Part shown: piece by piece, positions 792 to 19,590 of the stretch
Layout of the letters: each line of letters begins with the position of its first letter
Position numbering within the stretch: position 1 is the stretch's first letter
Notes under the pieces: model-generated
Database searches by the model: none
Told to the model about the DNA's origin: nothing
What the model saw: the letters and a program-made list of their open reading frames with translations, nothing else
Made by a program: the position numbers and the translations under genes
Origin: Ilumatobacteraceae bacterium
Lineage (GTDB): Bacteria > Actinomycetota > Acidimicrobiia > Acidimicrobiales > Ilumatobacteraceae
Length of the DNA: 64,000 nt
Direction: 5' to 3'
Assembly: GCA_963776935.1 (NCBI GenBank)
Contig: CAVZOP010000007.1
Span: forward strand, 8,788-72,787

Positions 792-807
792 AGAGAGTAG
801 AGCAATC

Positions 808-2196
808 ATGAGGCAAGGAGCACGCAAGGCCGCGGTCGCGATCACCTCGATCGCTACCGTGGCAGCATTCACGCTCAGCGGCTGCGGGTCCAACGGGGGC
901 ACGGGCGGCACCAGCGGTGAGCCCACGGATGGCACGGGCAACACCAACGGTCAGATCACGGATGCGCAACACGAAGAGGCGTTGAACACGCCGACCGAGC
1001 TGACCTTCTGGACATGGGTACCCGACATTCAGGATCAGGTCGACATGTTCATGGAGGAGTACCCGGCGATCAACGTCACGGTCGAGAACGTCGGCCAAGG
1101 ACTGGATCACTACTCAAAGGTGCGCACCGCTTCGCAGGCCGGTAGCGGCGGTCCCGACGTGGTCCAGCTCGAGCAACAGTTCATCACGTCGTTCGCCGTG
1201 ACCGGCGAGCTGCTCGATCTCACGCCGTACGGTGCGGCAGACATCGGGGACGAGTACGTGCCATGGGTCTGGAATCAGGTCGTCGCCAACGGCGAGGTCC
1301 TGGCGATCCCGCAGGACTCGGGCCCCTTGGGCAACCTGTACCGCGAGGACATCCTGACGGCGGCAGGTGTGACGGAGCCGCCCGCCACGTGGGCGGACTA
1401 CAAGACCGCCGCGGAGTTGGTGCGCGCGAACACGGACTCGTACATCTCGAACATGGCGCCGAACCAGGGCGCCGGTTGGGTCGGGCTGCTGTGGCAGGCG
1501 GGCGTCAAGCCGTTCGGCTATGACGGCGGCGAGGGTGTCACGATCAGCGTGAACAGCGCTGAGGCGAAAGAAGTGGTCAGCTACTGGCAGGACCTCATCC
1601 AGAACGATCTCGTCTCGGTCGACCCGGACTTCACCGACGAGTGGTACCAGGGTCTCAACCAGGGCAAGTACGCCGGCTGGATCACGGCCGCGTGGGCTCC
1701 CGTCTTCCTCTCCGGTGCCGCGGCTGACACGTCGGGTCTGTGGCGCGCCGCGCCACTGCCGCAGTGGAATGAGGGCGAGGAAGCCTCGGGCAACTGGGGC
1801 GGTTCAGTCAACGCGGTGCTCAAGACCTCGGAGAACCCGATCGCGGCCTACGAGTTGGCGAAGTGGATCAACTACGAACAGGAACCTGCGTTGCTGTTCG
1901 CGACCCAGCAGCACTTCTTCCCAACCAAGATCTCCGTGCTGGAGGACCCGGAGTTCGCTGCTCAAGAGCCTGAATTCTACGGTGGGCAGAGGGTCAACGA
2001 GCTGTTCGCGGGAATCTCCGAAACGGTCGACACCGAATGGGAGTGGCTGCCGTTCATGGAGTTCGCTTACACGAGCTTCAACGAAACGTTCGGGGCCCAG
2101 GTTGCGGCCAAGGGCGATCTCTCTGCAGGCCTGGATGCCTGGCAGGCCGCGCTCGAAGAGTACGCGACCCAGCAGGGCTTCACGGTCAACGAGTAG
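808..2196 (+). CDS. ABC sugar transporter, extracellular solute-binding lipoprotein
   Basis: ATG at 808 follows the stop of the upstream gene. The lipoprotein signal is MRQGARKAAVAITSIATVAAFTLSGCGS (lipobox LSGC). The body resembles family-1 solute-binding proteins (..LTFWTWVPD.., ..VLAIPQDSGP..). Confidence 0.85.
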   Translation: MRQGARKAAVAITSIATVAAFTLSGCGSNGGTGGTSGEPTDGTGNTNGQITDAQHEEALNTPTELTFWTWVPDIQDQVDMFMEEYPAINVTVENVGQGLDHYSKVRTASQAGSGGPDVVQLEQQFITSFAVTGELLDLTPYGAADIGDEYVPWVWNQVVANGEVLAIPQDSGPLGNLYREDILTAAGVTEPPATWADYKTAAELVRANTDSYISNMAPNQGAGWVGLLWQAGVKPFGYDGGEGVTISVNSAEAKEVVSYWQDLIQNDLVSVDPDFTDEWYQGLNQGKYAGWITAAWAPVFLSGAAADTSGLWRAAPLPQWNEGEEASGNWGGSVNAVLKTSENPIAAYELAKWINYEQEPALLFATQQHFFPTKISVLEDPEFAAQEPEFYGGQRVNELFAGISETVDTEWEWLPFMEFAYTSFNETFGAQVAAKGDLSAGLDAWQAALEEYATQQGFTVNE

Positions 2197-2267
2197 CACG
2201 CGGACGGCCCGGGGATCAAAACCCGGGCCGCCCCCGCTGCACCATCACCTGAGCGAAGGAACCTGAG

Positions 2268-3150
2268 ATGACCAGCGCGATCCACCGGAAGCACCGCCTC
2301 GTTGCCTACGGATTCGTCCTCCCATTCTTTGCCGTGTTCGCGGCGATGTTCATCGCACCGCTCGCCTATTCGGGCTACCTGAGTTTTTCGTGGACCGGCT
2401 CGTCGGCGACGCGAATTTCGTCGCCTTCGAGAACTATCTGCGCGCGTTCCAAGATCCCGGCTTCCTCGATGGCCTCGGGCGCACCGCGCTGTTTCTCGTG
2501 ACACAGGTGCCCATCATGCTCGGGCTCGCGCTGTTCTTCGCGCTCGCGCTCGACTCCGGTCGAGCGCGCGGCAGCAAGACGCTGCGGCTGCTCATCTTCT
2601 TGCCCTACGCGGTGCCCGGCGTCGTCGTTGTGCTCATGTGGGGCTACCTCTACGGGCAAGAGTTCGGACTCGTTGCCCAGATCATCGACGCAACCGGGTT
2701 GCCTCCAACCAACTTCCTGTCGGATTCTCTCATCTTGTTCTCGATCATGAACATCGTGACGTGGGCGTTCGTTGGCTACAACATGATTGTCATGTACGCG
2801 GCGCTCAAGTCGATTCCCACCGAACTGTACGAGGCCGCCGAGATCGACGGAGCGAGCCAATGGCAACTGGCCTGGAGCGTGAAGATTCCTATGATTCGGC
2901 CCGCCATCCTCCTGACCACCATCTTCTCGGTCATCGGGAGCTTCCAGATCTTCAACGAACCGAAACTTCTGGTGGAGATCGCGCCTACCGGGATCACGCA
3001 GTCGTTCACGCCCAACTACTACGCCTTCAACCTCGCGTTCGTGAACCAGGACATCAATTACGCCGCGGCGATCGCATTCCTGCTCGGCTTCATCATCATG
3101 ATCGTCTCGTACGTCGTGCAACTGAGCGCCCAGAGAAGGAAGTTCCAGCA

Positions 3151-3154
<4 letters not shown>
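2268..3154 (+). pseudogene. ABC sugar permease (MalF/LacF type), frame broken at a T5 run (2384-2388) as sequenced
   Basis: Track ORFs 2268-2501 and 2390-3154 are two halves of one permease. Adding one T to agtttttcgtgg gives ..GYLSFFVDRLVGDANFVAFENYL... The multi-TM body carries the EAA-like loop ..YEAAEIDGASQWQLAWSVKIPMIRP... Confidence 0.8.
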
Positions 3155-4655
<1,501 letters not shown>

Positions 4656-4666
4656 TCGGTAAGGGC

Positions 4667-5197
4667 TCACGACAGGTCTGATTGGGCGTTGATGGTGTAG
4701 TTCCATTCGCCGTGGAAGTCGTGTGGGTGGAGTGGGACGGCGGCGAGTTCGGTGTCGGTGATCCGGACGCCCTTCGCGTACCACTCGGGGTCGTGTGCGG
4801 CTTGCACGGTGAGGCCGGTGGAGGTGGTGGTTGCGGAGATCAGTTCGATGATGGTGCGCAAGCTGGTGAGGGGCCGTCCGCGCCAGTTCATCGTGATGAA
4901 CGAGAACATGCGGTGCTCGATCCGGTTCCACTTCGAGGTGCCGGGCGGGTAGTGACAGACCGTGATCGTCAGTCCTTTCTCAGCGGCGAGGCGGGCGAGG
5001 TGGAGTTTCCAGGCGCGAGCCGGTAGCCGTTCGAGCCGCCGGCATCAGCGGTGATCAACAGCCGCGTCGCGTTCGGGAACCGGGTGCTGCCCATCTGGTT
5101 CCACCAGGCCCGGATCGATTCGGCCGCGAACTCGGCGGTGTCAGCGACATCACCAACCGACACCCAGCCTTCGTTGGCGTCGGCGTGACGACCCGCT
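4667..5197 (-). mobile_element. ISAzo13-family (DDE_Tnp_ISAZ013) transposase remnant, C-terminal half, frameshifted near 5010
   Basis: Joining track ORFs 4969-5247 and 4667-4909 gives ..LLITADAGGSNGYRL/RAWKLHLARLAAEKGLTITVCHYPPGTSKWNRIEHRMFSFITMNWRGRPL..FHGEWNYTI... These are hallmark motifs of the ISAzo13/Rhodopirellula-type DDE transposase. The N-terminal half is absent. Confidence 0.7.
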
Positions 5198-5356
5198 GGG
5201 CTGCTGCCAGGCACGACGCGTTCGCAGAGGTTTAGCGTTGTCGCCAAACGGAGCCCACTAGACGCTTGGATATCGGTCTGAGATTTGCCTCTGAACAGGC
5301 ATTTCCTGTGGAGCGGACGACGGGATTCGAACCCGCGACCCTCACCTTGGCAAGGT
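5198..5356. repeat. Left copy of island-bounding direct repeat (attL-like): tRNA-Gly 3'-flank homologue plus exact 48-nt tRNA-Gly 3' half
   Basis: 5309-5356 is identical to 15062-15109. 5198-5308 aligns with 14953-15061 with scattered mismatches. Both copies start at GGGCTGCTGCCAGGC. Confidence 0.85.
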
Positions 5357-5841
5357 CATGAAAATGGTCTCCCCCGTCTCACCAGTCTCCCGAGCAGCGT
5401 GTCGTCTCCTCGCTAGTCTCCCCAGTCCGCAGAGTGCACCCCTGTCGCCTCGCAACCGTTTAGCGCGCTAAACCACCACGAACTCGCAGAGCGTGCGTCC
5501 TCGCCGAACGCCCGGGAAGCAACGCAGCTCCGCCTGGTCGCCGAGGCGCACAGATCGCCGGATCACGCGCTCGTTCTCATAAGCGGATCGCCGGATGCTA
5601 TCTGCATCTATACCAGTGCGCGTTGGTACGCACGGATGATCTGCAGAGCGTGTGTTGTTCTTGGATCGCGTATTTCGGCGGTGGGCGCGCATCGGTAAGT
5701 CTGGCACGCCCCGCACTTAGCCAACAAACTGGATCGAGGTGATCACGCTGTCGTCGACGGCCACGTTGAGACATCGATCAACACCGGTAATCGCACGCGA
5801 ATGCATCGGCAACGTCACACCTCCCGAGTAGAACGGCGCAC

Positions 5842-6684
5842 ATGCTCGAGATGCTTCCTGGCCGTCGACTTAACGACGCTATTATGCGCACTGTTCAAGA
5901 CGTGGCGACCGATGCTGGTAACCGGCGGGCAGCGGGCCAACCGATTCGGGCATTGCACGAGTGGGCGACCAACACCGAGGCCGGGTTTCGCGGCATCATT
6001 CCGACCAGCGAGGTGCAACGACTCGTCTACACCGAGAGGTACTGGCACGCTGGGACCGTCGACTCGCACTGGCCGAGATCGACGACGCCTACCACCGGTG
6101 GACACGCGAATTCGATGAGCTCAAGGCATGGCGCCAGCGGTGGCTCATCGAGCAACGCGATGATGATTGTCTCCGACACGTCCGTGATCCTGCGCGCCCA
6201 GGGTTCGATCGCCAGCATTGAGTGGTTCAAGCTCGTCGGCGCCGGCAAGCAAGATCCGGTTCGGGTGGTCATCCCGCTCGTCGTCCTCGATGAGCTCGAG
6301 AACCAGAAAGACCGCGGCGAGAACAAGGCACAAGAAGGTCAAGAGCACTCCCCGCGCGTCAAGGCTCGTCATGCCCTGCGAGACCTCGCAGCGCTGTTCG
6401 CCACCCGCATGTTGCCCACGCAGCCGACTGAGGTACCCGTCGAGTACGTCGTCGCTGCGCGGCCCACCGTTGAGGTGCTCGAAGATCCGCCCGGGGGTCA
6501 CGTCCGCTACCCGCGTGCCGACGATGAACTCATCCGCCGAGCCGTGCATCTGCGCAACACCACCGGCCGCCGAGTCGTCCTCGTCACCTATGACGTTGCG
6601 ATGTCCATCCGGGCGCAGATCGAGGAACTCAGCGTTGTACTTCATGATGGCGCGGGCGGCGCCGTGCCGCTCAATTTCCAGTGA
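5842..6684 (+). pseudogene. PIN-domain nuclease-like protein with helical N-terminal region (frame-disrupted upstream of the PIN domain)
   Basis: The C-terminal ~175 aa read ..MMIVSDTSVIL..VIPLVVLDELENQKD..YPRADDELIRRAV..VLVTYDVAMSIRA.., with four acidic positions spaced as in PIN domains. Upstream coding sense hops between track frames 5842 and 5961 (..LALAEIDDAYHRWTREFDELKAWRQRW..). Confidence 0.55.
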
Positions 6685-6977
6685 CCAGCTCGAGGCGTGG
6701 ATCCGAAGGCGGTCGATCATCGAGTCGCACCGATGCACGACCATCAGTGTCATGAACGACCACGACTTCTGCCACTCTGAGTGCGGCCGACGTCGTCGCC
6801 CTACTCAACTTCATCGACCGTGCTCTCGGCGACGACGCAGACCTTCGCGAAGAGCTGCGGATGCGCGGCCTCGACTGCGACGCAGCGAACGGAGTGCCCC
6901 GACAACCTCGTCGGCGGCTAATCGCGCGAACAAACGCATCGCGGGCAGCTGAGCTGTGGTCTCCTCGGCAACTGAGC

Positions 6978-7241
6978 CTAGTTGATCGTGCTGACCGCTG
7001 CCCGCACCGCGTCGGCGCGGCCGTCCAGATCGATGGCGACGAACCAATTGCCAGAGCTCTCGACGCGTAGCTGTGCAGGTGACTTGACCTGGCGGCCGCC
7101 GTAACCCCGGTAGTTGAGGCCACGCGTGTAGCGGGCGTAGTTGTAGCTGTCGACGAGGTGCACGTTCGCTTGCTTGTCGAGCTCGACCGTCACGGTGGTG
7201 CCGGCGGCGATGTGGCCGAGATTGAACTTGAGATGGTGCAT
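6978..7241 (-). CDS. DUF1883 domain-containing protein
   Basis: 87 aa: MHHLKFNLGHIAAGTTVTVELDKQANVHLVDSYNYARYTRGLNYRGYGGRQVKSPAQLRVESSGNWFVAIDLDG... This matches the remembered DUF1883 pattern (..DLG.l..G..v.V.L...aNV.LmDs.Ny..Y..G....Y.GG....SP..l......G.W.v.iDl.G). Confidence 0.7.
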   Translation of the reverse strand: MHHLKFNLGHIAAGTTVTVELDKQANVHLVDSYNYARYTRGLNYRGYGGRQVKSPAQLRVESSGNWFVAIDLDGRADAVRAAVSTIN

Positions 7242-7355
7242 TGATGTCTCCCCTTCAGGGGCTGGACTTCACGTTGGACGATGAACGAAAGGTCCACACG
7301 TGATGCCCGCTTGGCACGACCCAACGCGTCGTCGGGTCATGCCAGCGGCGGCACG

Positions 7356-7571
7356 TCAGACGCGCTGGGTGATGGTTCCGCCGGGGTTGCGGCGTGCGGT
7401 TGCTTCGGTGACGAAGCGGCCCGTACTCGCCGAGCGGCTGACGGGCGTGTTGTTCCGGGTGCTCCCGCCGACCCGCTCCGTGGTCGTGCGGGCCGGGTGG
7501 CGCTGGGCGGTCCCTCGAGTAACGAAACGTCCGGTCGATGCGCTGCGGTGGACGGTGTGTCCTTTGGCCAT
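7356..7571 (-). CDS. Small basic protein with two tandem ~35-aa repeats (SASTGRFVT..A.R.P..T..[EQ]RV)
   Basis: 71 aa: MAKGHTVHRSASTGRFVTRGTAQRHPARTTTERVGGSTRNNTPVSRSASTGRFVTEATARRNPGGTITQRV. A strong SD (AAGGAGAA, complement of 7581-7588) lies 9 nt upstream of the ATG. Confidence 0.5.
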   Translation of the reverse strand: MAKGHTVHRSASTGRFVTRGTAQRHPARTTTERVGGSTRNNTPVSRSASTGRFVTEATARRNPGGTITQRV

Positions 7572-7590
7572 GGTGGTGTGTTCTCCTTGA

Positions 7591-7710
7591 TCAGCGGCGG
7601 GTGAGGGTGACGCGGGTGGTCAACTTGACCGGCACGTATCGCGTGCCGGTTGAGGTACGGACCGGCACCCTGCGGGTCGTGGTTCGGGTGATCGTGCGGC
7701 TGGTCGCCAT
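7591..7710 (-). CDS. Candidate 39-aa Arg/Thr-rich micro-ORF (below the ORF-track size cut-off)
   Basis: Hand translation gives MATSRTITRTTTRRVPVRTSTGTRYVPVKLTTRVTLTRR*. Its stop lies 19 nt upstream of the next ATG, and the SD of the downstream gene sits directly after that stop. GAAAGGA lies upstream of its own ATG. Confidence 0.3.
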   Translation of the reverse strand: MATSRTITRTTTRRVPVRTSTGTRYVPVKLTTRVTLTRR

Positions 7711-7784
7711 GGTCTGATGTCCTTTCACCGTTGGGTTGTTGTGACGGACCTATGTCTGGCAGCGACGATTCGCCAGCAGGTTTC

Positions 7785-8903
7785 TCAGCTGACACGGCGG
7801 TCGAGTTGTTGCTCGAGGACCATGCGTCGCTTGATGGTCTTGCGGCCGTTCTTCAGTCGGTACTCCACTTGCGGCACCGTCATTTCGACTTCGGCGCTGA
7901 TCTCCGGGTCGGTCCAGCCGCTGCAGTCGAGTCGGAGCACCTCCGCGATCTCCTCGCCGACCAACTCCATGTACCGGTCGAACTCGACGGCGCCGAGCAC
8001 GTCGTCGGGTTGTCCGACGATGTCGCCGCGGCATCCTGAGACCTGTTGCATCGCTTCCCGCTCGCGACGCATCTGGGTGCGCCAGGCTCGCCACGCTGTG
8101 GGGAGTCGAAGCACGGCGAGGTTGGTCGCCCACGTCCGAATCGCGGCGCCTCCGTCCACCGTCCACATCCCTGTCGCGAGCTGATCACGCAGTACAGGCA
8201 TCATCGCTTGCACGGTGCGTTCGGCCATGGCCTGCGCAGCGTCGTGCGGCACTCCGTTCGCCGGCGTCTGCAAATCGAGTGCTGGATGACCGCCGAGCTG
8301 CACGTACCACGACCAGACGTTCCCTTTGCGGATCATGGAGGCGACGACCTTCGTCGTGTACAGCCACACGTGCTCTTTGATCTCGGTCCAGGCCGGACCG
8401 TCCTCGTTGCCGTCGCTGAGCTCGAACTGAAGATAAAGGACCCGATCCGCATCAGTGAGTTTCGGCTCGTAGGGCGCCCCGCCTCCGGTTATAAGAACGG
8501 CTCGTTCGGCCGGTCGGAGGCGGAGTCGAATGATCCATGAGCGGAGTTGAGTAACGGCGACTCGATAACTAGCTCGTCCCTCGCTACTCATCGACCCGTC
8601 GTATGGCGACATGCGAGAGCACCATGAACTTTTTCGGAAAGCGTCGAAAAGCTCTGTGACCAGGAGCGACGCACACCCACCACCATCCCGTAACAGCGCT
8701 GGATTGTCGAAGAGATCCAACAGGCTGTTCGTAGATGCCGGGCATCGGCAGGGACTTGTCGGTCGTGGCACGATGAGCCGTGCCGGAACGCGACGCCGGG
8801 CTTCGGCGGTGAAATCGGCGCCGACGCTGTGTGACCTGTACGCGTCGGCACGCATGACGAGCATCCTGCCCAGCAGAAGGTCGATGTCATCGTTGTCAGG
8901 CAT
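7785..8903 (-). CDS. Putative transcription regulator with C-terminal sigma-70 region-4-like HTH and a long novel N-terminal region
   Basis: 372 aa. The C-terminus ..EEIAEVLRLDCSGWTDPEISAEVEMTVPQVEYRLKNGRKTIKRR.. resembles ECF-sigma region 4. I did not recognise the first ~280 aa. Confidence 0.55.
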   Translation of the reverse strand: MPDNDDIDLLLGRMLVMRADAYRSHSVGADFTAEARRRVPARLIVPRPTSPCRCPASTNSLLDLFDNPALLRDGGGCASLLVTELFDAFRKSSWCSRMSPYDGSMSSEGRASYRVAVTQLRSWIIRLRLRPAERAVLITGGGAPYEPKLTDADRVLYLQFELSDGNEDGPAWTEIKEHVWLYTTKVVASMIRKGNVWSWYVQLGGHPALDLQTPANGVPHDAAQAMAERTVQAMMPVLRDQLATGMWTVDGGAAIRTWATNLAVLRLPTAWRAWRTQMRREREAMQQVSGCRGDIVGQPDDVLGAVEFDRYMELVGEEIAEVLRLDCSGWTDPEISAEVEMTVPQVEYRLKNGRKTIKRRMVLEQQLDRRVS

Positions 8904-9462
8904 TCAAGATCGATCGTACGACGAGGGTGTGACAGCAATAGGCGCTTCGACGGGCCAGGACGCTACGCGCTGCGAAACGCGTCGAGGCTGACGGCAAGTC
9001 GTTGAACACGCGCAAGTCGAATCCTCAGGCCTTGCTCAGTGGACCGGCAGGAACCGCAGTCAGGGCGTTCGCGAGCAGACCGATCTGTGCCAGCCACGAA
9101 ATCGGCGATCAGCGCAGAAACACGCGGCGCAGAACGACGCCACCGTCATTGACGGACGACGCGTCCTATCGGCGCCTCGGATTCAAAGCGACCGGGTTGT
9201 TCGGTGGATCGGACGCTCACGGAGACCAATCGTTGAGTGCGCGTCGCGTCTGAGCGTCCCTCGACAGGGTTGCGTAGTTGAGCGATCGATTAGCGACTCT
9301 CCCGGTGCGGAGGCAGCGCCGGCACCCTACGTCGGCCCACGCGTGACCCAGGAAGCGCGGGCTGAAGCTCTCGACATTCAACGGGTCGGTGAGATGGGCG
9401 GCTGAAGCCTCACATCATCGACATCTCAGCCATCGCCGCGCCCGGCGTCGGCAGGCCCTTCC

Positions 9463-10189
9463 TCAGTTCAGCGAACACTTCTTGACTATGTGCTCTGCCA
9501 GGACCTTTGGTGACATCCGGCGGGCATCGAGATACCCGATCGTTGGTCGGATTCCGGGCAACTCAGTGTCATCGAACCGAACCGGAAGAATGTAATCGGA
9601 ATCCTGGTTCTCCAATGCAGCTGAGAGTGCGCTGCGCCGCTCATGCACAGTCCACATCCACGTGCGGTATTCCGCTGAGATGAACATGACCACATGTCTC
9701 GAGCGAAGGCGGTACACACCGTCGAGGTGCTCAGCGAGATCCTTGCCCCAAAGTTCGGTCTGCGCATCTCGGTCGTAGAAGATTCGAAGGTTCCGGGCCT
9801 TCAGTTTCGTCGCCACGCGCTCGACGTATCACGTTGCCGCGCGCCACAAACGATAAAGCCACGTCGTACTCAGCCACCTTCAGCCCCACGTCCGTCAACC
9901 GCTGTCCAAGATCCCACATCATACTTGCTAGATCGTCGCCCTGACCGATAGCTCGGAGTACCGACGAGTCGTACGCAGCCGTGGAGGACAGCACAAGCGC
10001 GCCGACGATAAGCCCTTTCTCGGGGGCCTCTTCTCGCACGATGGGGATGGAACGTTGAAAGGCCCAGCGTTCGCCGCCGTGGCCGCTGTTTTTCTGCATC
10101 GTCTCGCCGAAGAGTACCGAATGCGCCGCAAGGTTGGCGGTGTCCGGATGAAGTGAAAACGCCTGAACCGTCCTCGCATGTTTAACCAC
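9463..10189 (-). pseudogene. TIR-domain protein with ~115-aa N-terminal extension (frame break at ~9832-9850 as sequenced)
   Basis: The upstream frame ends ..LKVAEYDVALSFVARGN. The downstream frame continues YVERVATKLKARNLRIFYDRDAQTELWGKDLAEHLDGVYRLRSRHVVMFISAEYRTWMWTVHERRSAL..DYILPVRFDDTELP... This is the bacterial TIR_2 pattern (D-V-x-L-S-F start, FYD, S..Y....W...E, ILPV). The N-terminal part (..RSIPIVREEAPEKGLIVGALVLSS..) is faintly like the C-terminal half of a GAF domain. Confidence 0.65.
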
Positions 10190-10360
10190 GAAAGCGCTCG
10201 ACCCCCACTGCTCAACATGCGTTGGACCCGTTAATCCACGCGCTCAGTTCGATCTGTTCGTTGCTCGGCGGCCTCGGAAGCGATGCAAGCGCACCAAAGA
10301 GCAGGCGATGAAACTCTTGGAAGATAAGACTGAGGCTGCGCTCGTCGGCGAAGCGACGAT

Positions 10361-11297
10361 CTAGAGACTTGTACCAACCTCCTTGCGCTTCGAAAATGAC
10401 TCTGGCCAGTAGTCGTGGCCTGCGACGGCGGCGATCGTGAGTTCATTGACGATTTCCGCGATGTCGCCGTACGTCGAAAGACTAAACACGTCGATTCCAC
10501 GCTGGCCGAGTGTTTGGGCCACAAGTCGGTGTAGTTGTGGAGTCCGGTCATCTGGCCTGCGCTGCGTTACGAACAGCTTGACGGCGCAATTGGGGTCTGG
10601 AAGGCGCCGTACAAGTTTCGCCACGAGTGGATGCAGCACTGGGAAACCAAGCAGCAGGCATACATCGGCGCGGAGGATCCAAATGAGCGCCCCCTCGTCG
10701 ATCTCAGGCGGCAGGGTCTGGACAAGATTTGACCGGCGCACGGCCGGTTCGATCGGGCCCGGAAATCCCGTAGAGATGCAGCACACTCAAATGACCAAGC
10801 AGATCCACCTCTACATCATTGGGCGGCGTGATCTCAGCCGGTAGAACGGGCACTATCCTCACTTCGCCTCTGGCGACGGAGTGAGCTGTTCGGCCCAGAG
10901 CGTCCTCGATCTCGAGGGTTCGCGATGTGGTCGCTATCCGAATCCAGGTGTTACGAGTGCAAGCCGAGCGATGCGGCTGATCAGGAGGCTGGATCTGAAG
11001 CTGACAGGTCACTCGGTGGTTCATGGAGCTCAAGAACGGTCCCGAGGGTGTCGAGCTCAAGAACTCGAGCGCTTCCAGCTCGTCCTCCCAGACGGACGGC
11101 GCGTGAGTGCGGTCGACCCGAAAGATCTCATCGACCAGTGCCCTCCTCACCAACTCGACGTCATCTGGTCGCCCAAGACTTGCGGCGACACCAGGACCTA
11201 GCACGAGCGAAACCGCCGTGGCTCCCCGCACTCGATCGATCAGACGCACGAAGTGCAGGTTGTGTTCCGAGAGGACGCTCTCACTCGGATAAATCAC
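10361..11297 (-). pseudogene. SIR2-like (SIR2_2/DHS-like NAD-binding fold) protein (frame break at ~10765-10785 as sequenced)
   Basis: GTG start at 11297. Four motifs support the call:
- ..AVSLVLGPGVAASLGRPDDVEL.. (GAGxS-like loop)
- ..IRIATTSRTLEIEDAL.. (cf. ITTNYD..lE)
- ..LSVLHLYG.. (cf. KLHG)
- after the shift, ..ALIWILRADVCLLLGF.. (cf. llfiGyS)
No SLOG-like C-terminal domain was recognised. Confidence 0.55.
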
Positions 11298-11977
11298 CGA
11301 GGCGCCCCCGAGCCAAGGTCCTGAGGCTGCATGTCACGACGCGCCCGTTAGACATGGCCACCAATCTAGGGCTTGACGCGGGGCGACCAGCTGGAGCTTC
11401 GGCGCGTGCGAGCTGTTGAGCGTCGAACGTGCGGGGCGGAGCGCGCCTTGCCGCCGAGGACCTCATGCAACTCAAGCGCGCTTCGTTCAAGCTGAACGCG
11501 CCTCATTCGAGGGTCCCGGCGGACCGGACCATCTCCGGGGCACTCGACCGGAGTCACGCATATCGCGCACACAGAACGGTTCAACTCGGCATCGCCAGGA
11601 GCGCCCATATCGGCGCATCGGCGTGCGCCCGCGAGCCGGGTGCTGGGGCGCCTGCATCGTGAGACGGCCGGAGCATTTGGCCGTGCCAGACCTCGTTGTC
11701 GGATTCCTCCGGAGTGAACCGCCCTGGCTTCGTTGGAGGCCACACCTCCGCACCGAGATCGGCTGAACCGCAACACAGCGTCGCGTCTGACCCCTGAACC
11801 GGCCAACGCCCACCAGGCTGTTCGACGAACGAATTGTCGACACGACGCCAACACCGGCGCGGGCCGTGACTTAACAGGAGCCTGCCCTCACTCGAGTGGC
11901 CCATCTCTGTCGTGTCCGACCAACCGCGCCACAGGTTCCTTGACAACACAGGAGGATCGATCTGAATACCATCGGCG

Positions 11978-12372
11978 ATGTCCCCGAGTGCCGATCGGGG
12001 ATACAGAACTACCGCACAGATCGACCGCGACTGGTCCACTCGTCGCCGCGCTCCAAACGGCGTCTCTGTTCGACGCGATACCATTCGGCTACGGCGACCC
12101 GCCCGGAAGAAACTCGAGGCAGTTTGGCGCGCCGATGGCACGATCATCGCGGTGGCTCGCCGCTTCGAGGTAGCGCCGACAACGGCCGCGATATGGCTCG
12201 CAGACGTCGGCATCTTCGTCAAGTCCGAGCCGGCAATCTGCGCGCCAACCCGCTGGCGGCGATCGACGCCGGCAAGTCGATCAACGAGATCGCCGCCGAT
12301 CACGGCGTCGGTGATCGGACAGTTAGTGTCGAGCTTCGCCGCCACGGCCTAGTCGAACGCCACCGCCGCAGA
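11978..12372 (+). pseudogene. Tandem helix-turn-helix fragment (resolvase/transposase-type HTH), frame-disrupted; 3' limit uncertain
   Basis: ..KKLEAVWRADGTIIAVARRFEVAPTTAAIWLADVGI.. is in track frame 11978. ..LAAIDAGKSINEIAADHGVGDRTVSVELRRHGL.. follows in frame 12124. No catalytic domain follows. Confidence 0.3.
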
Positions 12373-12660
12373 CCAACGGGTCCCGTAACGGCTTCGTCGA
12401 AGACCTCCAGGCGGGCGCGGGAGGAGCTCAGTCAGCGCGAGTTCGTTGAGCACCAAACGCGACATTCGATGAACCCCCCTCGACAGACCGGCAGGGATGG
12501 CGACGTCGTGCGTGGCTGCGGAACGAAGTGGAGGCTGCGACCCATCGATCGCTTTCGTCGCCCTGTCTGTATGCGAAACCGCGACGACGCTTCCTTGACA
12601 GCCCCACGCGTGAGGTACACCATGAAAGCCGCAGCACGAAAGTGCCGAGAGAGGGGATCA

Positions 12661-13560
12661 GTGATGGCGATAATATCCGGAGACGGCTTCACTGCGCCGT
12701 TTGACGAGGACGGAGAACCCTATGGCACCTTCGGTGCACGGACACCGGCGTTGCGGACCTTTCGCCTGACTTTTGGATCGCACCGAAAACTGGCGCTGAT
12801 CGGTGTCCTTCCTGGAGGCGAATCGCAGGACCTAAATCCCGCAACGCCGCCAGACACGGATGATGATCCCGGACCAGTCGCTCCAGGGCCGGTGGAGGTA
12901 CCCGATGGGCGACTTTATGTGTACCTCCAGGACGCCCATCCGGAGGGCGACGAGTTTTCATACGAGGTATCACATTCCGCCGTTCGCATCCCAGGGGCAC
13001 GGAGATATCAACTCCGTGACGTGGGTTGCGTGGGTGTTTGTACTCGCGTTCTCCCCTTCTCTGTCCTGGGAGGAATAAGTGCGGTCAGTCGACCACTCCT
13101 CGCTCTCGTCGGGTTCAAGCTGTATTTCATCGGCGGGCGCGAGCACAACATCGATCGAATAGGTGTCTGGTTTGTAGAAAACAAGCTCAAGGTTGCATTT
13201 AATGACAAGAACGACGACGACACCTTCGGATACGTCGTCGACTTCGTGGTAATTCCAAGCTTGGGGTTGAATTTGAACGAGGGTGAACTTAAGGGCAAAG
13301 GTGCGACAGGGTTACAGACCGTTCCTTTGGCAACCCCGAGTCGCGGCAGCTTTATGCTCACCGGATTCGACTTGAATTATCAAAAGGGCGACCACGAAGT
13401 ACGCGACGTCGGGGTTTATCGTCGGCGGAACGACTTGACCGTGATTCATGCTGACGATGCCGGAGCATCACCCTTCGATTGGCGAGTTTCTTTCGCTCAA
13501 CCCGCTCCTCAGGTGTTCGCTGATGAGGGAATTCGATCAACCCTTGTTGCTGTTCCATAG
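12661..13560 (+). CDS. Hypothetical protein with three internal repeats (L-x-[GT]-F-x-L-x-[FY]..H..[IV]..[IV]GV..)
   Basis: GAGGGGA RBS at 12651-12657, then GTG 12661 / ATG 12664. The three repeats are LRTFRLTFGSHRKLALIGV, LVGFKLYFIGGREHNIDRIGVWFVENKLKVAFNDKNDDDTFGYVVDF and LTGFDLNYQKGDHEVRDVGVYRRRNDLTVIHADDAGASPFDWRVSF. This is the lowest-GC stretch of the window. Confidence 0.5.
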   Translation: MMAIISGDGFTAPFDEDGEPYGTFGARTPALRTFRLTFGSHRKLALIGVLPGGESQDLNPATPPDTDDDPGPVAPGPVEVPDGRLYVYLQDAHPEGDEFSYEVSHSAVRIPGARRYQLRDVGCVGVCTRVLPFSVLGGISAVSRPLLALVGFKLYFIGGREHNIDRIGVWFVENKLKVAFNDKNDDDTFGYVVDFVVIPSLGLNLNEGELKGKGATGLQTVPLATPSRGSFMLTGFDLNYQKGDHEVRDVGVYRRRNDLTVIHADDAGASPFDWRVSFAQPAPQVFADEGIRSTLVAVP

Positions 13561-13668
13561 GATAGCTGCAATAGAGAGCAGCGCGCTGGGCGTACGGTTC
13601 GCCCGGAAGTGGTGCCTACTCCCAGGCGGAGAGCGCACAGGCCGGGACAATCGGCAACACTGACGGCG

Positions 13669-14628
13669 ATGCGCGGCTCCTCGACCAGCCGGTTCGCCGC
13701 CTTCCGGTCGGCGATCGTTCTGGGCGGAATCATCGCGTCCGTGACCGGATGTGAGGACGTGCCCCGGAATCTGATGGTGTTACCCGTGCGCTGGTGCGCT
13801 CTCGAAGGGTCGTCGATCGCCCTCGGAGCGCCGGGCGAACTGGTGTCGTCTCATCCCGACATCGCCGCTGCGACGCTTTCGGCCGGCGAGATTTGGGCTC
13901 AGGCCGACATCGCACTGATCGCAGTCGTTACCGAACGATCGGGTGTGAAAGGCGTGCCGGTGATCGTGGACCTCGATTCGTTTCATGCCCCGGGCGAGGA
14001 CACCGGAGATATCTACTCCGAGGGTGGTGATCTCTTCGAGGCGCAGATCGCGGCTCAGGAATGTGATCAGGTATGGAGGAAGCTCGGTCCCGGCGCCTCT
14101 GGCCCCGTCGCGGTCGTTGCCCGGCGATTCGTCGGCTTGGGGCTGACGCGTGGCGTGGCGCCGCCGCCCCCGTTCTCGATGCGGCGAAATGGTCCGCGCT
14201 GGGGAGATCTGTGCGCCGAGCCGTGTGCCTTGTCAGCGAGCGACGTGTTCGACATTGGGCACCACACATCGTCCGATCGCGGTTGGATGGTCATCCAGGA
14301 CTTCGCGCTGTACTCAGGCACGCGACGCCGTGACGAAGACATCGCTCACGAACTCGGTCATGTGCTGTACGTCGGTCACGGCGACGGCGTCGACAACAAT
14401 GATGATGGAACGGCGACGCCAACTGACGGTTTCCGTCGCTACGACGAGTATTGCGATCCGCTCGGCAGCGGTGAGGATGAGCAGTCGTCGCCGCCTCCGG
14501 CATGTTCTGCGTCGCTGATGATGCCGTCTCCCTGCGATACGAAACTGACGGACTTGCAGGTCGAGCAAGCGCGTGCCGCGGCGGCGGTGATGCCTGGCTG
14601 CAAGGGGTCGGCCTGCACACCGGGTTGA
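13669..14628 (+). CDS. Secreted zinc metalloprotease-like lipoprotein (metzincin-type HELGHxxxxGH motif)
   Basis: The signal peptide is MRGSSTSRFAAFRSAIVLGGIIASVTGCED (lipobox VTGC). The zinc motif is HELGHVLYVGHGDG. The C-terminal tail is Cys-rich. Confidence 0.65.
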   Translation: MRGSSTSRFAAFRSAIVLGGIIASVTGCEDVPRNLMVLPVRWCALEGSSIALGAPGELVSSHPDIAAATLSAGEIWAQADIALIAVVTERSGVKGVPVIVDLDSFHAPGEDTGDIYSEGGDLFEAQIAAQECDQVWRKLGPGASGPVAVVARRFVGLGLTRGVAPPPPFSMRRNGPRWGDLCAEPCALSASDVFDIGHHTSSDRGWMVIQDFALYSGTRRRDEDIAHELGHVLYVGHGDGVDNNDDGTATPTDGFRRYDEYCDPLGSGEDEQSSPPPACSASLMMPSPCDTKLTDLQVEQARAAAAVMPGCKGSACTPG

Positions 14629-14952
14629 GGTGGTGCGATCGGGCGTCGGCGGGGTGTTGCGGTGCCAGAAGTGCTCGTCCGGCGTTCTGCGCGAGCGACA
14701 CAGCACGTACACCATGCAGCCCACTCGGGCGGTGGCCACGGCCCCGCGGTGTGCGCTCCAGAGTCGGGCAATCAGTAGCGCCGCGCCTTCGTCTCGAGGC
14801 TGACCAGTCGCTACCGCCGTTTGACGCTGCTTCGAGGCTATTCAAAAGAGTCGCCGGCTCACCCACGACGTGAACCTGGGTACCCGGCCGCCTAGCACCG
14901 ATTCGGTAGAGCATCACCTGACCGGACCGAATCTGAGACGCTCTACGAGAAT

Positions 14953-15109
14953 GGGCTGCTGCCAGGCTCGACGCGTTCGCAGAGGTTTAGCGTTGTCGCC
15001 AACCGAAGGCCACGAACGCTTGGATCCGGTCCGAGATTTGTCCTCTGAACAGGTACTTCGTGTGGAGCGGACGACGGGATTCGAACCCGCGACCCTCACC
15101 TTGGCAAGG
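14953..15109. repeat. Right copy of island-bounding direct repeat (attR-like), overlapping the intact tRNA-Gly
   Basis: See 5198-5356. The exact 48-nt core 15062-15109 covers the tRNA from the CCA end to the anticodon loop. Confidence 0.85.
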
Positions 15110-15136
15110 TGATGCTCTACCACTGAGCCACGTCCG
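15062..15136 (-). tRNA. tRNA-Gly (anticodon GCC)
   Basis: The reverse complement GCGGACGTGGCTCAGTGGTAGAGCATCACCTTGCCAAGGTGAGGGTCGCGGGTTCGAATCCCGTCGTCCGCTCCA folds as a 75-nt cloverleaf. It has a 7-bp acceptor stem, an anticodon loop TTGCCAA, a GTTCGAATC T-loop and an encoded CCA. Confidence 0.93.
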
Positions 15137-15157
15137 CGTGGGTCGCCAGATTACCAA

Positions 15158-15754
15158 TCATTCAAGGGGAGCGGACAACCGCGACTCGACCACCTCGGGC
15201 TGTCGTGCGTTGACCGCGATCACCCCCAGCGCAGCCAGCACGGCGACCGCGCCGCCGATCTGGAGCGCCGCCATCGGCTGGTCGAGCCACAACCACGCCC
15301 CCACCGCTGAGATCACCGGACTGGCGAGCGTGAGCAGCGACGCCACCGACACCTCGAGGTGGCGTTGCGCCCAGGTCATCAATCCGTGTCCGAACAGACC
15401 GGGTCCGACCACCATTCCGGCGAGGAACAACCAGTCCCATCCGGCAACCGCTCCGAGGTCGTCGGCGATCAACACGCACACCGGGACGGCGAGCAACGCT
15501 GCGATCGCGGTGATCGCTCCGATCGGCGCCCAGGAGTGCACACCGGAGTCGCGGCGTCGCTTCACCGCCAAGAAGTACATGGCGAAAGCCACGACGTTCA
15601 CGACCGCGAGCGCGTCGCCCGAGAAGGCCGCGCCCGCGGTCTTGCCGGCCCCCACGACCACCACGATGATCCCCACCACCGCCACCCCGGCGACGAGGTA
15701 GTGCAGACCACGGATCCGTTCGTGCATGAACAGGCGGGTGGCGAGGGTGATCAA
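15158..15754 (-). CDS. EamA/DMT-family transporter (short, ~6 TM)
   Basis: 198 aa of hydrophobic helices with a glycine-rich DMT-like pattern. The TTG start directly follows the stop of the upstream ORF, so the N-terminus may be truncated or mis-set. Confidence 0.6.
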   Translation of the reverse strand: MITLATRLFMHERIRGLHYLVAGVAVVGIIVVVVGAGKTAGAAFSGDALAVVNVVAFAMYFLAVKRRRDSGVHSWAPIGAITAIAALLAVPVCVLIADDLGAVAGWDWLFLAGMVVGPGLFGHGLMTWAQRHLEVSVASLLTLASPVISAVGAWLWLDQPMAALQIGGAVAVLAALGVIAVNARQPEVVESRLSAPLE

Positions 15755-16003: not shown

Positions 16004-16997
16004 TCAGCCGGACTCGTCACGCTCGTCGACGTCGGGATCGTCCGAACGATCGTCCTCCGACTCGACATCGGGCTCGCTCGCAGGATCGATCGACTCGACC
16101 TGCCGACTCGACATCGGGCTCGCTCGCAGGGTCGACCTCGGGATCGCTCACGTGCGGGTCGTCGCCGGGCTCGCTCACCGAATCGGCCTCTGGCTCGCCG
16201 TCGGACGCGACGGCCGGCTCGGCTTCCGGCTCGCTGACAGCATCGTCGACCGGCTCGGATTCCGGCTCCTTGACGGCTTCGTCGACCGGCTCGGATTCCG
16301 GCTCCTCGGCGACCACCGACTCGTCGGTCTCGACATCTCGGTCGCGCTCGTCCGCCTGTTCGAGCACGGCGAGGAAATCGTCGGTGTCCTGCTCACCGGT
16401 GATGTCCTCGTCGTCGTCATCGCCCTCACTGCCGCCGTCGGCCGCGACGCCGTCCGCATGCTCGTCGACGCCCTCGGCGGGGCCGACCGCGTCAACAGGC
16501 TCCGGGGTGTCGGTCGCCGACTCGGCGGCAGCCGCCGCATCACCAGCGTTCGTGTCGACGTCGCCGGGCCCTTCCACCGCGACCGCTCCGATGGCCGGAG
16601 CCGGGAGCTCTGTCGCAGGCGCGTCCGGAGCATCGCTCGACACGACGAGGTCGTCGAAGCCGATCGGTTGCGGGCCGCGCTCGAACTCGGCATCCGTGTC
16701 GGGTGGCGCGCTCATCGGCTCCAACGGATCGGCACCACCTGGTCGCACCTCGTCGAGGCGCCGGCGTTGCCAGACCGGGTCAGCGCGCCGCCACTTGCGC
16801 TGCCCCATCCGTTCGAGCGGCGCGAGCACCTCGGGGTCGGGCCGGGTGTTCCGCACCAGCCAGACGGCCAACATGATCATCGTGAACCCGAGCGCCACGA
16901 GCAGCACGATCGTCGCGTACACCGTGCGGTCGCGGCTGGGGTCGCCGACGGCGACGAGCGCCGCGGAAGACCGAGCGGGGAACGGGAGGAGAGGCAT
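16004..16997 (-). pseudogene. Membrane-anchored, highly acidic repeat protein (frame break at ~16090-16100 as sequenced)
   Basis: ATG at 16997 (MPLLPFPARSS..), one TM helix (TIVLLVALGFTMIMLAVWLV), then a D/E/P-rich tail. The tail includes the repeats EPESEPVDEAVKEPESEPVDDAVSEPEAEP. A duplicated DPASEPDVES unit falls out of frame in its second copy. The restored frame ends ..DERDESG* at 16004. Confidence 0.55.
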
Positions 16998-17020
16998 CGT
17001 CGGATCGCAAAGGTGGCAGG

Positions 17021-17785
17021 TCACCTCTGATGGTAGGCGCACCACACCGTCGTTCGACCGCCGATCTGCGCGACGTGCAGCGGCCTGCCGTCGCGTGGGC
17101 ACGGTGGCCGGGCCGCGCGGACGTCTGGCGACAGCACTCCGGTGTGGCTTCCGCCGCGTTCGAGCATCGCCGGCAGGTGCTCCAGCATCGCCGCGTGCAG
17201 CCGGCCAACCTGCCGTGCGGTGACGGTGTTGGCGATCCGTCGCGGGTCGAGCCCGCAGTGCCACAACAGCTCGTCGACGAGCATGTTGCCGAGCCCTGCG
17301 ATGGCGTGCTGATCGAGCAACACCGCCTTCAACGCAGTCCGCCGGCGGCCGAGCACCGCAGCCAACTGCGGCCGCGTCACGTCGAACAGATCAGGCCCGA
17401 GTGGCGCCGCGTCGGGATCGATCGAGAAGCGCGCCCACCGCCGCGGATCGTTGACGCGCAGCACGCCGCCATCCGTGAACTCGATGCGCAGCCGATCCCA
17501 ACGCGGCTCGTCGCGACGACTGCCGTACTCGAGCCGTTCGATCGGCGCCGCGCCGTCCAGTACGAGACGGCCGGTCATCCCGAAATGGAGCCCGATCGTG
17601 GGTCCGTCGGTCCCGATCAGCAAGAGCTTCCCCACACGGTCGGCGGACGTGAGCTCCCGAAAGGCCACGGCGTCGGCGAAGTCCGGTGGCGCCAGCGAAT
17701 CGTCCACCGCGACGGACGCGACAACCCGTCCGATGGCGCCGAGCGCGGTTCGTCGGTACAACTCGACTTCCAAGCCCTCGGGCAC
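17021..17785 (-). CDS. Fpg/Nei-family DNA glycosylase / AP lyase
   Basis: The N-terminus MPEGLEVE has the catalytic Pro2/Glu3. The H2TH region is ..LLDQHAIAGLGNMLVDELLWH... The C-terminal finger region is atypical. Confidence 0.8.
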   Translation of the reverse strand: MPEGLEVELYRRTALGAIGRVVASVAVDDSLAPPDFADAVAFRELTSADRVGKLLLIGTDGPTIGLHFGMTGRLVLDGAAPIERLEYGSRRDEPRWDRLRIEFTDGGVLRVNDPRRWARFSIDPDAAPLGPDLFDVTRPQLAAVLGRRRTALKAVLLDQHAIAGLGNMLVDELLWHCGLDPRRIANTVTARQVGRLHAAMLEHLPAMLERGGSHTGVLSPDVRAARPPCPRDGRPLHVAQIGGRTTVWCAYHQR

Positions 17786-18249: not shown

Positions 18250-19419
18250 TCAGCCGACGCGGCCGAGGAACTTGCCGAGGGGTGCGCTCACCTGATCGAC
18301 GTTGATCAGGAACGCGTCGTGACCGTGCGGTGAGTCGACTTCGGCGTACGAGCTGGGAGTCCCCTGCCGGGTGAGCATCTCGTGGATCAGGCGCTGCTGG
18401 TAGGACGGGTAGAGCATGTCGCTCGAGATCCCGATCGCCAGCGACGGGACCGTGATGCGCGCCATCGCGCTCTCGACCGACCCGCGCGATCGGGCGATGT
18501 CGTGCAGGTCCATCGCCTTGCCGATCACGAGGTAGCTGTTGGCGTCGAAACGGTGCACCAGCCGCTCGCCGTGGTACTCGAGGTAGCGCTCGACCTCGAA
18601 CTGCTGCCACAGCCCGAACGTGTCGCCGAACGCCGGCCGGTCGGCCAGATCGCGGCCGAATCGATCGGTGAACACGTTGTCGCTGCGGAACGTGACCTGG
18701 GCGATCTGGCGGGCGATGGCGAGACCCTCGGACGGGCCGTCACCGGGCTCGGCGTCGTAGTAGTCGCCACCGCGCCACCGTGGGTCGAGGCGGATCGCAC
18801 GGCGACCGATCGCGCCCCACGCGATCTGCTGGGCGGTGGCCTGCATGCACGCCGCGATCGGGGCGATCGAGCGCACGCGCCGCGGGTACGTGATGGCCCA
18901 TTCGAGGACCTGCATTCCACCCATCGATCCGCCGACGACCGCGTGCCACGACTCGATTCCGAGGTACGGCATGAGACGGACCTGGGCGCGAACCATGTCG
19001 CGGATCGTGACAACGGGGAAGCGCGATCCGTACGGGCGACCGTCGACGGGGTGTGGCGACGCCGGCCCGGTGGAGCCCTGGCACCCGCCGAGCACGTTGG
19101 CGCAGACGACGAACCACCGGTCGGTGTCGAGCGCCAGTCCGGGTCCGATGACATCGGACCACCAGCCCGGTGCGTTGTGGCCCGTGCCGGCGCGGCCCGA
19201 GGCGTGACTGTCGCCGGTCCACGCGTGGCAGACGAGGACGGCGTTCGAGCGATCCTCGTTGAGCACGCCCCACGTCTCGTAAGCGATCACGACGTCGCGA
19301 AGGGCGACGCCGCTCTCGAGCGCGAACGGGTGGTCGTTGGCGAACGTGAAGAACCGGCGGCATCCGGCTGGATCGGTCGGTTGCCAGGCCCCGGTCACCG
19401 GGAGCGGCTCAGTGCTCAC
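18250..19419 (-). CDS. metX: Homoserine O-acetyltransferase
   Basis: 389 aa with ..VLVCHAWTGDSHA.. and the nucleophile elbow ..VVGGSMGGMQ... GTG start is preceded by GAGGAGG. Confidence 0.9.
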   Translation of the reverse strand: MSTEPLPVTGAWQPTDPAGCRRFFTFANDHPFALESGVALRDVVIAYETWGVLNEDRSNAVLVCHAWTGDSHASGRAGTGHNAPGWWSDVIGPGLALDTDRWFVVCANVLGGCQGSTGPASPHPVDGRPYGSRFPVVTIRDMVRAQVRLMPYLGIESWHAVVGGSMGGMQVLEWAITYPRRVRSIAPIAACMQATAQQIAWGAIGRRAIRLDPRWRGGDYYDAEPGDGPSEGLAIARQIAQVTFRSDNVFTDRFGRDLADRPAFGDTFGLWQQFEVERYLEYHGERLVHRFDANSYLVIGKAMDLHDIARSRGSVESAMARITVPSLAIGISSDMLYPSYQQRLIHEMLTRQGTPSSYAEVDSPHGHDAFLINVDQVSAPLGKFLGRVG

Positions 19420-19452: not shown

Positions 19453-19590
19453 GCAGTGCATCGCGAGCGGCACGAACGCCGGGTTGCCGGACGGATCCGG
19501 CCACATCCCACCGTTGCCGGTGGAGGCACCTTGGAGCGTTCATCCAGGTTGCCGGGCCCATTGTGCGGGCCGCTCGAAATGCTGCACCGA
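19453..19590 (-). promoter_or_regulatory. Candidate SAM riboswitch (SAM-I/SAM-IV-like core) in the metX leader
   Basis: The RNA reads ..CGAGCGGC-CCGCACAAUGGGCCCGGCAACC-UGGAUGAACGCUCCA-AGGUGCCUCC-ACCGGCAACGGU..GCCGCUCG. An 8-bp closing helix (19569-19576 with 19464-19471) encloses several hairpins. The conserved SAM-I/IV strings GCAACC and AGGUGC are present in the expected order. Confidence 0.45.

Follow-up and report, generated by a model that had tools for sequence, protein, structure and literature searches.

In a 64,000-nt window from contig CAVZOP010000007.1 of an Ilumatobacteraceae bacterium (assembly GCA_963776935.1), a tRNA-Gly(GCC) gene is followed by a segment of about 9.75 kb that is probably a decayed tRNA island, the remnant of an integrative element that has lost its integrase. 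By window we mean this whole stretch; coordinates are positions within it, and features on the minus strand are marked (-). The tRNA gene is intact and is the only one that ARAGORN and Rfam find in the window. Its 3' part belongs to an imperfect direct repeat, each copy of which combines a tRNA 3' part with an adjoining flank:

15063-15137 (-): tRNA-Gly(GCC), intact, the presumed integration target (ARAGORN; Rfam tRNA, 74 bits)
15063-15110 (-): proximal attachment-site core, the 3' 48 nt of the tRNA, part of the intact tRNA-Gly
14952-15062 (-): right (tRNA-proximal) flank copy of the repeat, ~110 nt, with no Rfam hit and no significant fold
5309-5356 (-): distal attachment-site core, a displaced tRNA-Gly 3' fragment covering tRNA positions 28-75 (blastn-short, 48/48)
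5197-5308 (-): left flank copy of the repeat, 88.5% identical to the right copy, with 49/50 in the distal 50 nt

The displaced fragment lies downstream of the intact tRNA-Gly in the same orientation and spans the sequence from the anticodon stem (position 28) to the exact 3' end. These are the marks by which Islander recognises tRNA islands, namely an intact tRNA gene (tDNA) with a co-oriented 3' fragment that starts at a canonical crossover sublocation and reaches the tRNA 3' end; a class of attachment (att) sites centred on the anticodon has been described for such islands, and a start at tRNA position 28 fits it (PMC4383910). A preliminary description of this DNA, made from its letters, had already reported the exact 48-nt copy at 5309-5356, which stands once its right-hand coordinates are shifted by one to 15063-15110, and had seen similarity with scattered mismatches continue into the DNA downstream of the tRNA. 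This is also borne out: 5197-5308 and 14952-15062 align with 100 matches, 10 mismatches and 3 single-base indels, and both copies open with TGGGCTGCTGCCAGGC. Identity is uneven along the flank, only ~80% in the 60 nt adjoining the tRNA as against the nearly perfect distal block. The contrast with the tRNA part is significant (no difference in 48 nt versus 13 in 113 columns; Fisher p = 0.011), and at the rate of the flank 48 nt would stay unchanged with a probability of 0.003. The displaced tRNA piece is identical throughout although no function protects it; the flank copies must therefore have diverged before the repeat formed, a point on which the preliminary description was right; judged from these counts, the repeat-forming event is recent relative to the divergence of the flank copies.

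This pattern bears on a simpler origin, a local segmental duplication or a by-product of rearrangement by insertion sequences (IS), with no integration at all. Such a duplication predicts equal divergence along the repeat, and it does not foresee a correctly oriented and configured piece bounded by the anticodon stem and the tRNA 3' end, nor enclosed DNA that is compositionally foreign and absent from relatives (see below). In its favour, the region is heavily rearranged and holds a short inverted tRNA fragment at 14905-14919; we nevertheless consider it highly improbable. This fragment reproduces tRNA-Gly positions 17-31, from the D-arm to the anticodon stem, without a mismatch over its 15 nt; it is read on the plus strand, in the orientation opposite to that of the tRNA gene, and stands 33 nt beyond the right repeat copy (blastn-short within the window, E = 0.003). 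An earlier att rearrangement may have left it as a scar, or the match may be accidental.

Between the repeat copies (5357-14951), G+C is 62.4%, against 69.5% in the 48.9 kb to the right of the tRNA, which we use as the core. With a standard deviation of 1.0% among 4.8-kb chunks of the core, the island deviates by z about -7, and its tetranucleotide distance from the core reaches z = 7.6-9. The compositional foreignness proposed earlier from two 60-nt samples (25/60 and 43/60 G+C, both counts exact) is thereby confirmed over the whole segment. The DNA left of the repeat is atypical as well (1-5196: 64.0% G+C, tetranucleotide z = 8.2), and the island is therefore, on compositional grounds, one module, the tRNA-proximal one, of an atypical and much rearranged region that extends over at least 15 kb downstream of tRNA-Gly.

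Gene content was searched by scanning the six-frame translation of 5200-15140, with stops replaced by X, against Pfam, by scans open reading frame (ORF) by ORF at E up to 1, and by scans against the PADLOC, NCBIfam and PHROGs libraries. The island reads as follows:

5842-6684 (+): PIN_4-domain protein, 280 aa, cargo (Pfam E = 5.7e-14)
6978-7241 (-): DUF1883 protein, 87 aa (Pfam E = 3.3e-19; phrog_9211 positions 14-94 of 268)
7785-8903 (-): 372-aa protein (275 aa in the gene calls of the source), its C-terminus weakly similar to sigma-70 region 4 (Sigma70_r4_2 E = 0.04)
9463-10189 (-): TIR-domain gene with a 1-nt frameshift (TIR_2 match 9463-9831)
10200-12400: stretch without family matches and with a weak coding signal (scan of G+C at third codon positions, GC3; no Pfam in six frames)
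12676-13560 (+): 294-aa protein with no meaningful family match in the library scans, in the lowest-G+C part of the island
13609-14628 (+): putative lipoprotein, 339 aa, with a HELGHVLYVGH zinc-binding-like motif in its translation and no family match

Six-frame Pfam matches are limited to PIN_4, DUF1883 and TIR_2. None of the six frames of 5200-15140 holds a Phage_integrase, Resolvase, Recombinase or transposase match in Pfam, in agreement with the preliminary reading that neither a tyrosine nor a serine recombinase is encoded there, and the island cannot move by itself. Relaxase, FtsK/Tra and Rep families are equally absent from the six-frame and ORF scans of the island, no conjugation or mobilisation remnants are seen in it, and, beyond weak TIR matches, the ORF, PADLOC, NCBIfam and PHROGs scans gave nothing more. 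Elsewhere in the window, ten ORFs of 300-450 aa at 19-58 kb are all metabolic or regulatory, and none of them is an integrase that could act in trans. The ORF adjoining the tRNA, 14291-14917, was considered as a hidden recombinase and set aside: it is an artefact, arginine-rich, antisense to the HExxH gene and without matches. Phage structural, packaging and replication genes are missing too, the PHROGs matches being confined to PIN (PhoH-like), DUF1883 and TIR families.

Parts of the island appear to be decaying. The frameshift in the TIR gene falls near 9826-9830, where the first strand of the domain, EYDVALSF, is read in one frame and YVERVATKLKARNLRIFYD… in the next; the TIR_2 match lacks the first strand in its own frame, and the rejoined protein matches TIR models across the junction. 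The split gene could be either a pseudogene or a sequencing error. The adjoining stretch at 10200-12400 probably consists of decayed genes. At its end, 11978-12400 (+), two helix-turn-helix (HTH)-like peptides stand in different frames, …IIAVARRFEVAPTTAAIWL… and …INEIAADHGVGDRTVSVEL… (HTH_23 E = 0.04), which could be remains of a transposase or of a regulator N-terminus. The preliminary description saw the island as filled with conflict-type domains. One PIN, one DUF1883 and one frameshifted TIR gene are indeed present, but the statement was too strong: PADLOC recognises no complete anti-phage defence system, only a weak TIR match (PDC-S66, E = 1.7e-8) on the frameshifted gene. The SIR2 domain it listed finds no match in Pfam, PADLOC, NCBIfam or PDB sequences, and its metzincin comes down to the HELGHVLYVGH motif in 13609-14628, a protein that matches no family, PDB sequences included.

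The 372-aa protein is the only candidate for an element-backbone gene of the island. Among 5.8 billion proteins only P0122 is homologous to it (45% identity), and P0122 lies on a 5.5-kb metagenome contig (JGI 3300067032) that also encodes a reverse transcriptase (RVT_1), an excisionase-like HTH_17 protein and a tyrosine integrase of 400 aa (Arm-DNA-bind_4/Phage_integrase). This provides a suggestive link, at the level of protein similarity, between the island and an integrase-bearing element. The element on that contig resembles the island in carrying a homologue of the 372-aa protein; it differs in having an integrase gene (int) and an excisionase-like (xis-like) gene, neither of which is found in the window island, and the homologue is the one gene known to be common to both. 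Wider searches returned nothing: scans of a genome collection with an alignment of the 372-aa protein and P0122, or with the EamA protein encoded next to the tRNA, gave no match; in tblastn the 372-aa protein matched none of 50,697 phage records and no plasmid; and scans of IMG/VR with the 372-aa, PIN and 294-aa proteins found no relatives.

Is the segment absent where the tRNA site is uninterrupted? Homologues of the neighbouring Nei/Fpg glycosylase assign the window to Ilumatobacteraceae; the nearest relatives recognised in this way (81-92% protein identity) come from metagenome assemblies, and the tRNA locus was compared in five of them (L001, L002, L003, L004 and L006). All five keep the order Nei to tRNA-Gly, with a tRNA 96% identical to that of the window, and all five depart from the window right after the tRNA 3' end (GCTCCA); the island is absent from every one. 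L001, L004 and L006 share a terminator-like flank after the tRNA, TCCGAAACCCCAGCTGTGCTGGGGTTTCGCC…, which is 95-97% identical between L001 and L006 over about 80 nt. In these three genomes CCCCAGC-TGTG-CTGGGG followed by TTT comes directly after the tRNA, and no such hairpin follows the occupied tRNA-Gly of the window (14952-15062). The 110-nt flank of the window, in either copy, is unlike the flanks of all five relatives, and the common, different flank of L001, L004 and L006 implies that the repeated 110 nt are not the native flank of the lineage.

On L006 a single contig carries Nei, EamA, tRNA-Gly, the native flank and then a sugar-uptake block (LacI-GH42-SBP-permease-permease-GH42', SBP being a solute-binding protein), with no island between; it may be regarded as effectively an empty site. 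In L001 the G+C is normal, and the 8.6 kb that follow its tRNA contain no repeat of a tRNA fragment. Taken with L004, these genomes offer the uninterrupted tRNA sites, and hence the sporadic occurrence, expected of a tRNA island, and the earlier proposal of a discrete foreign insert at the 3' end of tRNA-Gly holds up in this comparison. The two remaining relatives have other sequences at the same place, an unrelated hairpin-containing flank in L002 (2694-2755) and, from a reading of the translation, an IS-like gene directly after the tRNA in L003 (5295-5600). To judge from these genomes, the 3' side of tRNA-Gly is a general insertion hotspot in the clade. On the other side of the tRNA, the gene for an EamA-family transporter (15158-15754 (-)) encodes 198 aa in the window and 309 aa in L003. 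Relative to L006 and L003 the window copy is short of about 300 nt, and in L001 the gene is absent, which suggests that the upstream side of the tRNA is eroding too.

The far end of the repeat abuts quite different DNA:

4663-5196 (-): C-terminal half of an ISAzo13-family transposase, frameshifted and in two ORFs, abutting the left repeat copy (DDE_Tnp_ISAZ013 positions 142-308 of 308)
1-4662 (+): part of a sugar-uptake block, with GH42, a solute-binding protein, two permeases and a truncated second GH42 (Pfam; 64.0% G+C)
1-5197, window: location of the sugar block, found also in L006 at 3072-10456, in L007 at 2885-10968 and in L008 at 3432-10541

In full, the block measures ~8.1 kb and comprises LacI, GH42, SBP, two permeases, GH42' and ISAzo13', the ISAzo13 fragment being inserted into the truncated GH42 gene. 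L001, L006, L007 and L008 all derive from sister assemblies of the ERZ250395xx series. In L008 the match to the window reaches 4662 and the ISAzo13 fragment is absent, which is the state before the IS insertion. The match of L007 (92%) runs from 1 to exactly 5198 of the window and takes in the ISAzo13 fragment with the same truncation point; past its own breakpoint (10968/10969) L007 continues into the C-terminal third of an ISL3-type transposase and not into a tRNA flank. The breakpoints of the window (5197/5198) and of L007 are thus the same within 2 nt and joined to different DNA. Because 5197 is a junction common to other genomes, the ~160 nt of the repeat are a minimum: the unusual length noted in the preliminary description is a lower bound, set on the left by a shared breakpoint. 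The homology of the repeat was probably once longer, the DNA left of 5197 having been replaced.

The block itself is a puzzling neighbour. It is 90-96% identical among the four genomes that carry it (window, L006, L007, L008), compared with about 82-84% for the core among the window, L006 and L001; the part at 1-4662 is 90-94% identical to L006, L007 and L008, and L006 in particular matches the window at 93.7% over 1-4560 and at 83-88% in the core. Its left end is the same in L006 and L007, its right end is the same within 2 nt in L007 and the window, and its neighbour is tRNA-Gly in L006 as in the window, though the block has opposite orientations in the two. A discrete mobile unit without a recognisable recombinase, landing repeatedly 80-110 nt downstream of tRNA-Gly or its fragment, could be imagined from these data, an idea that we consider quite unlikely. 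If it were true, the left edge of the repeat would mark the insertion point of the unit, the repeat homology would resume beyond the block, outside the window, and homology to 14629-14951 would likewise resume to the left of the window. Two simpler accounts of the block do not work. Comparison with L001 does not show it to be cleanly inserted in L006, as L006 does not rejoin L001 after the block; nor does the window derive from an L006-like ancestor by a simple in-place inversion, the window flank being unrelated to the native flank of L006.

The unequal similarity of the two sides to L006, and the fact that the source is a 114-kb contig whose relatives are all metagenome assemblies, raise the question of an assembly chimera, in which two co-occurring populations would have been joined through tRNA or flank sequence. 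A join via a shared repeat would not give a partial copy of the tRNA that is flanked on either side by unique sequence, at 5197 only 2 nt overlap with L007-like sequence, far below an assembler k-mer, and the island has no internal repeat to seed a misjoin; we give this explanation very little credence. Rearrangement is plentiful in the region, as witnessed by the truncated ISAzo13, the truncated GH42, the inverted sugar block and the truncated EamA.

What, then, is the repeated flank? A structured RNA or a terminator was rejected (no Rfam hit; fold z-scores of -0.7 to +1.2). A motif search within the segment points elsewhere:

5466-5495: inverted-motif copy inside the left end of the island, containing GGTTTAGCG; an imperfect (23/30) candidate arm-type site or terminal inverted repeat
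14963-14992: inverted-motif partner inside the right flank copy (23/30 against 5466-5495)
5208-5237: third motif copy, inside the left flank copy (repeat search)

None of 1000 random 150-nt segments of the island reached the 23/30 inverted match between the flank and the far end of the island, and the 9-mer GGTTTAGCG occurs three times in 64 kb, each time at one of the three motif copies. After excision at the core, the motifs would flank it at about 70-100 nt and 110-140 nt, an arrangement that resembles the arm sites of an element attachment site (attP) of ~250 bp, the size given for such sites (PMC4383910). Given the inverted repeat with the far end of the island and the different native flank of the relatives, both flank copies would come from integrative elements and not from the chromosome. 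The repeated ~110 nt look like attP-arm DNA in both copies, and we read the right copy as a putative P'-type (tRNA-proximal) arm of the island itself.

The preliminary description had offered another reading, in which the element carried a diverged copy of the tRNA-Gly flank of another genome. In this scenario there was a single integration, the attP brought in the tRNA 3' half together with ~110 nt of chromosomal flank from a related host, and the left copy would be native and the right one the donor's. Flanks about 11% apart next to an identical tRNA part had indeed already diverged when they were joined, and long att identities past the tRNA are familiar from HP1 and SLP1. The flank is found, however, in none of the five relatives, three of which share another one; its significant inverted repeat with the far end of the island is expected of element arms and not of chromosome; and the left copy adjoins a truncated IS at the breakpoint shared with L007, not chromosome. 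A 23-mer from the best-conserved block of the flank has no match in IMG/VR, and a 20-mer, among 241 million metagenome records, has a single one (L005), low in G+C, unrelated and attributable to chance. Capture of a host flank is therefore unlikely, and the claim does not survive in its original form.

The evidence is best accommodated by the following history, which we put forward as a proposal. The segment at about 5357-15062 would be the remnant of an integrative element that inserted in the 3' half of tRNA-Gly(GCC), through site-specific recombination of the tyrosine-integrase type with a crossover in or near the anticodon loop. The element would have supplied a replacement tRNA 3' half and displaced the old one to 5309-5356. 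The integrase and excisionase module would later have been lost by deletion, and the cargo would now be decaying, as the frameshifted TIR gene and the roughly 2 kb without recognisable genes suggest. The left flank copy may stem from a related element that had inserted before, as part of a tandem array; it would be the arm of that element nearest to the tRNA, about 11% diverged, and the rest of the element would have been removed by rearrangements in this IS-scarred region; accretion of related elements in tandem at one target has been described (PMC5704250). We hold this tandem origin of the left copy tentatively, as somewhat short of an even bet and with less confidence than the island itself. 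The island could move only with a cognate integrase provided in trans or with a related element inserting alongside; it may conceivably be mobilisable in trans, because its distal junction would amount to a complete attP-like site.

The repeat could also have arisen by a RecA-dependent, Campbell-type insertion of a circle carrying a ~160-bp homologue of the tRNA 3' half and flank. Such an event gives direct repeats across the full homology and needs no integrase in the island, and the repeat is long enough for homologous recombination. It does not predict an inner repeat edge at tRNA position 28, the classical boundary of an integrase att site; moreover, the tRNA piece of the circle needs an origin, which leads back to an integrative element, and the resident flank would still be non-native. 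We judge it improbable, and continue to prefer integration by a site-specific recombinase followed by decay.

Some points weigh against this preferred history. No integrase remnant was found, so that the recombinase family is deduced from the geometry of the site alone, and the link to an element consists of one 45%-identical homologue. The proposed earlier element survives as only 110 nt. No second example of the flank or of the island turned up in the viral, metagenome and genome collections searched, which leaves the idea of an arm belonging to an element family with no outside replicate. A simple deletion does not explain why the edge of the repeat coincides with the breakpoint in L007. 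Finally, the distal end of the variable region, with any native flank there, lies outside the window, and the contig was apparently assembled from a metagenome.

If the tandem or composite-island model is right, the DNA to the left of the window should hold LacI, followed by what may be the native flank in inverted form (…CCCCAGCACAGCTGGGGTTTCGGA…), a further tRNA-Gly 3' fragment and, less certainly, an integrase. Two further features of the window lie on the core side of the tRNA. A membrane-anchored, very acidic protein is encoded at 16017-17264 (-), in a gene that holds imperfect 33-nt repeats (16021-16246); it is kept beside Nei in the relatives, where its called length varies from 243 to 329 aa. 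A SAM-I/IV riboswitch (19470-19587 (-); 49.6 bits, above the gathering score) stands upstream of a homoserine O-acetyltransferase-like gene at 18250-19419.

The island is an ordinary kind of mobile-element remnant in an under-sampled lineage. It reveals no new mechanism; its value is that of an annotated tRNA-Gly integration hotspot in Ilumatobacteraceae, and of an example, from poorly studied uncultured Acidimicrobiia, of how a tRNA island ages, with loss of the integrase, decay of the cargo and a build-up of att arms and IS scars. An automated search for islands that demands an integrase would overlook it. The case also calls for caution, in that a long att repeat can be the truncated remnant of a tandem element and not a captured host flank.

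Repeats that outgrow the tRNA are not unprecedented: in Streptomyces SLP1 and Haemophilus phage HP1, att identity extends well beyond the minimal core, past the tRNA 3' end. There, the extension is identical to native host sequence, whereas that of the window differs by about 11% and does not resemble the flank native to the relatives. Closer similarities are found with the islands collected by Islander (PMC4383910; Williams 2002 as cited there), which likewise consist of a tDNA and a displaced 3' fragment from the anticodon arm, with a restored tRNA, atypical composition and sporadic distribution; the window island differs in that it fails the integrase filter, with no integrase inside or overlapping it, and in that its similarity runs ~110 nt past the tRNA. 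The closest parallel is provided by the cis-mobilizable elements (CIMEs), which keep both the left and the right attachment site (attL and attR) and have no recombination or transfer genes, for example those related to ICESt1/ICESt3 of Streptococcus thermophilus (PMC5704250). In comparison with these, no conjugation or mobilisation remnants were identified in the window island and descent from an integrative and conjugative or an integrative and mobilizable element would be conjectural; the host is an uncultured member of the Acidimicrobiia, the proposed tandem partner is cut to ~110 nt, and mobility in cis would be assumed by analogy. The likeness nevertheless extends to the position at the 3' end of a conserved gene and to a neighbouring related att arm, as would be left by accretion. 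With attL and attR apparently retained, as exact cores flanked by arm sequence with the inverted motif, and with six frames free of recombination and transfer genes, a remnant of the CIME type is, on sequence grounds, the best reading of the island.

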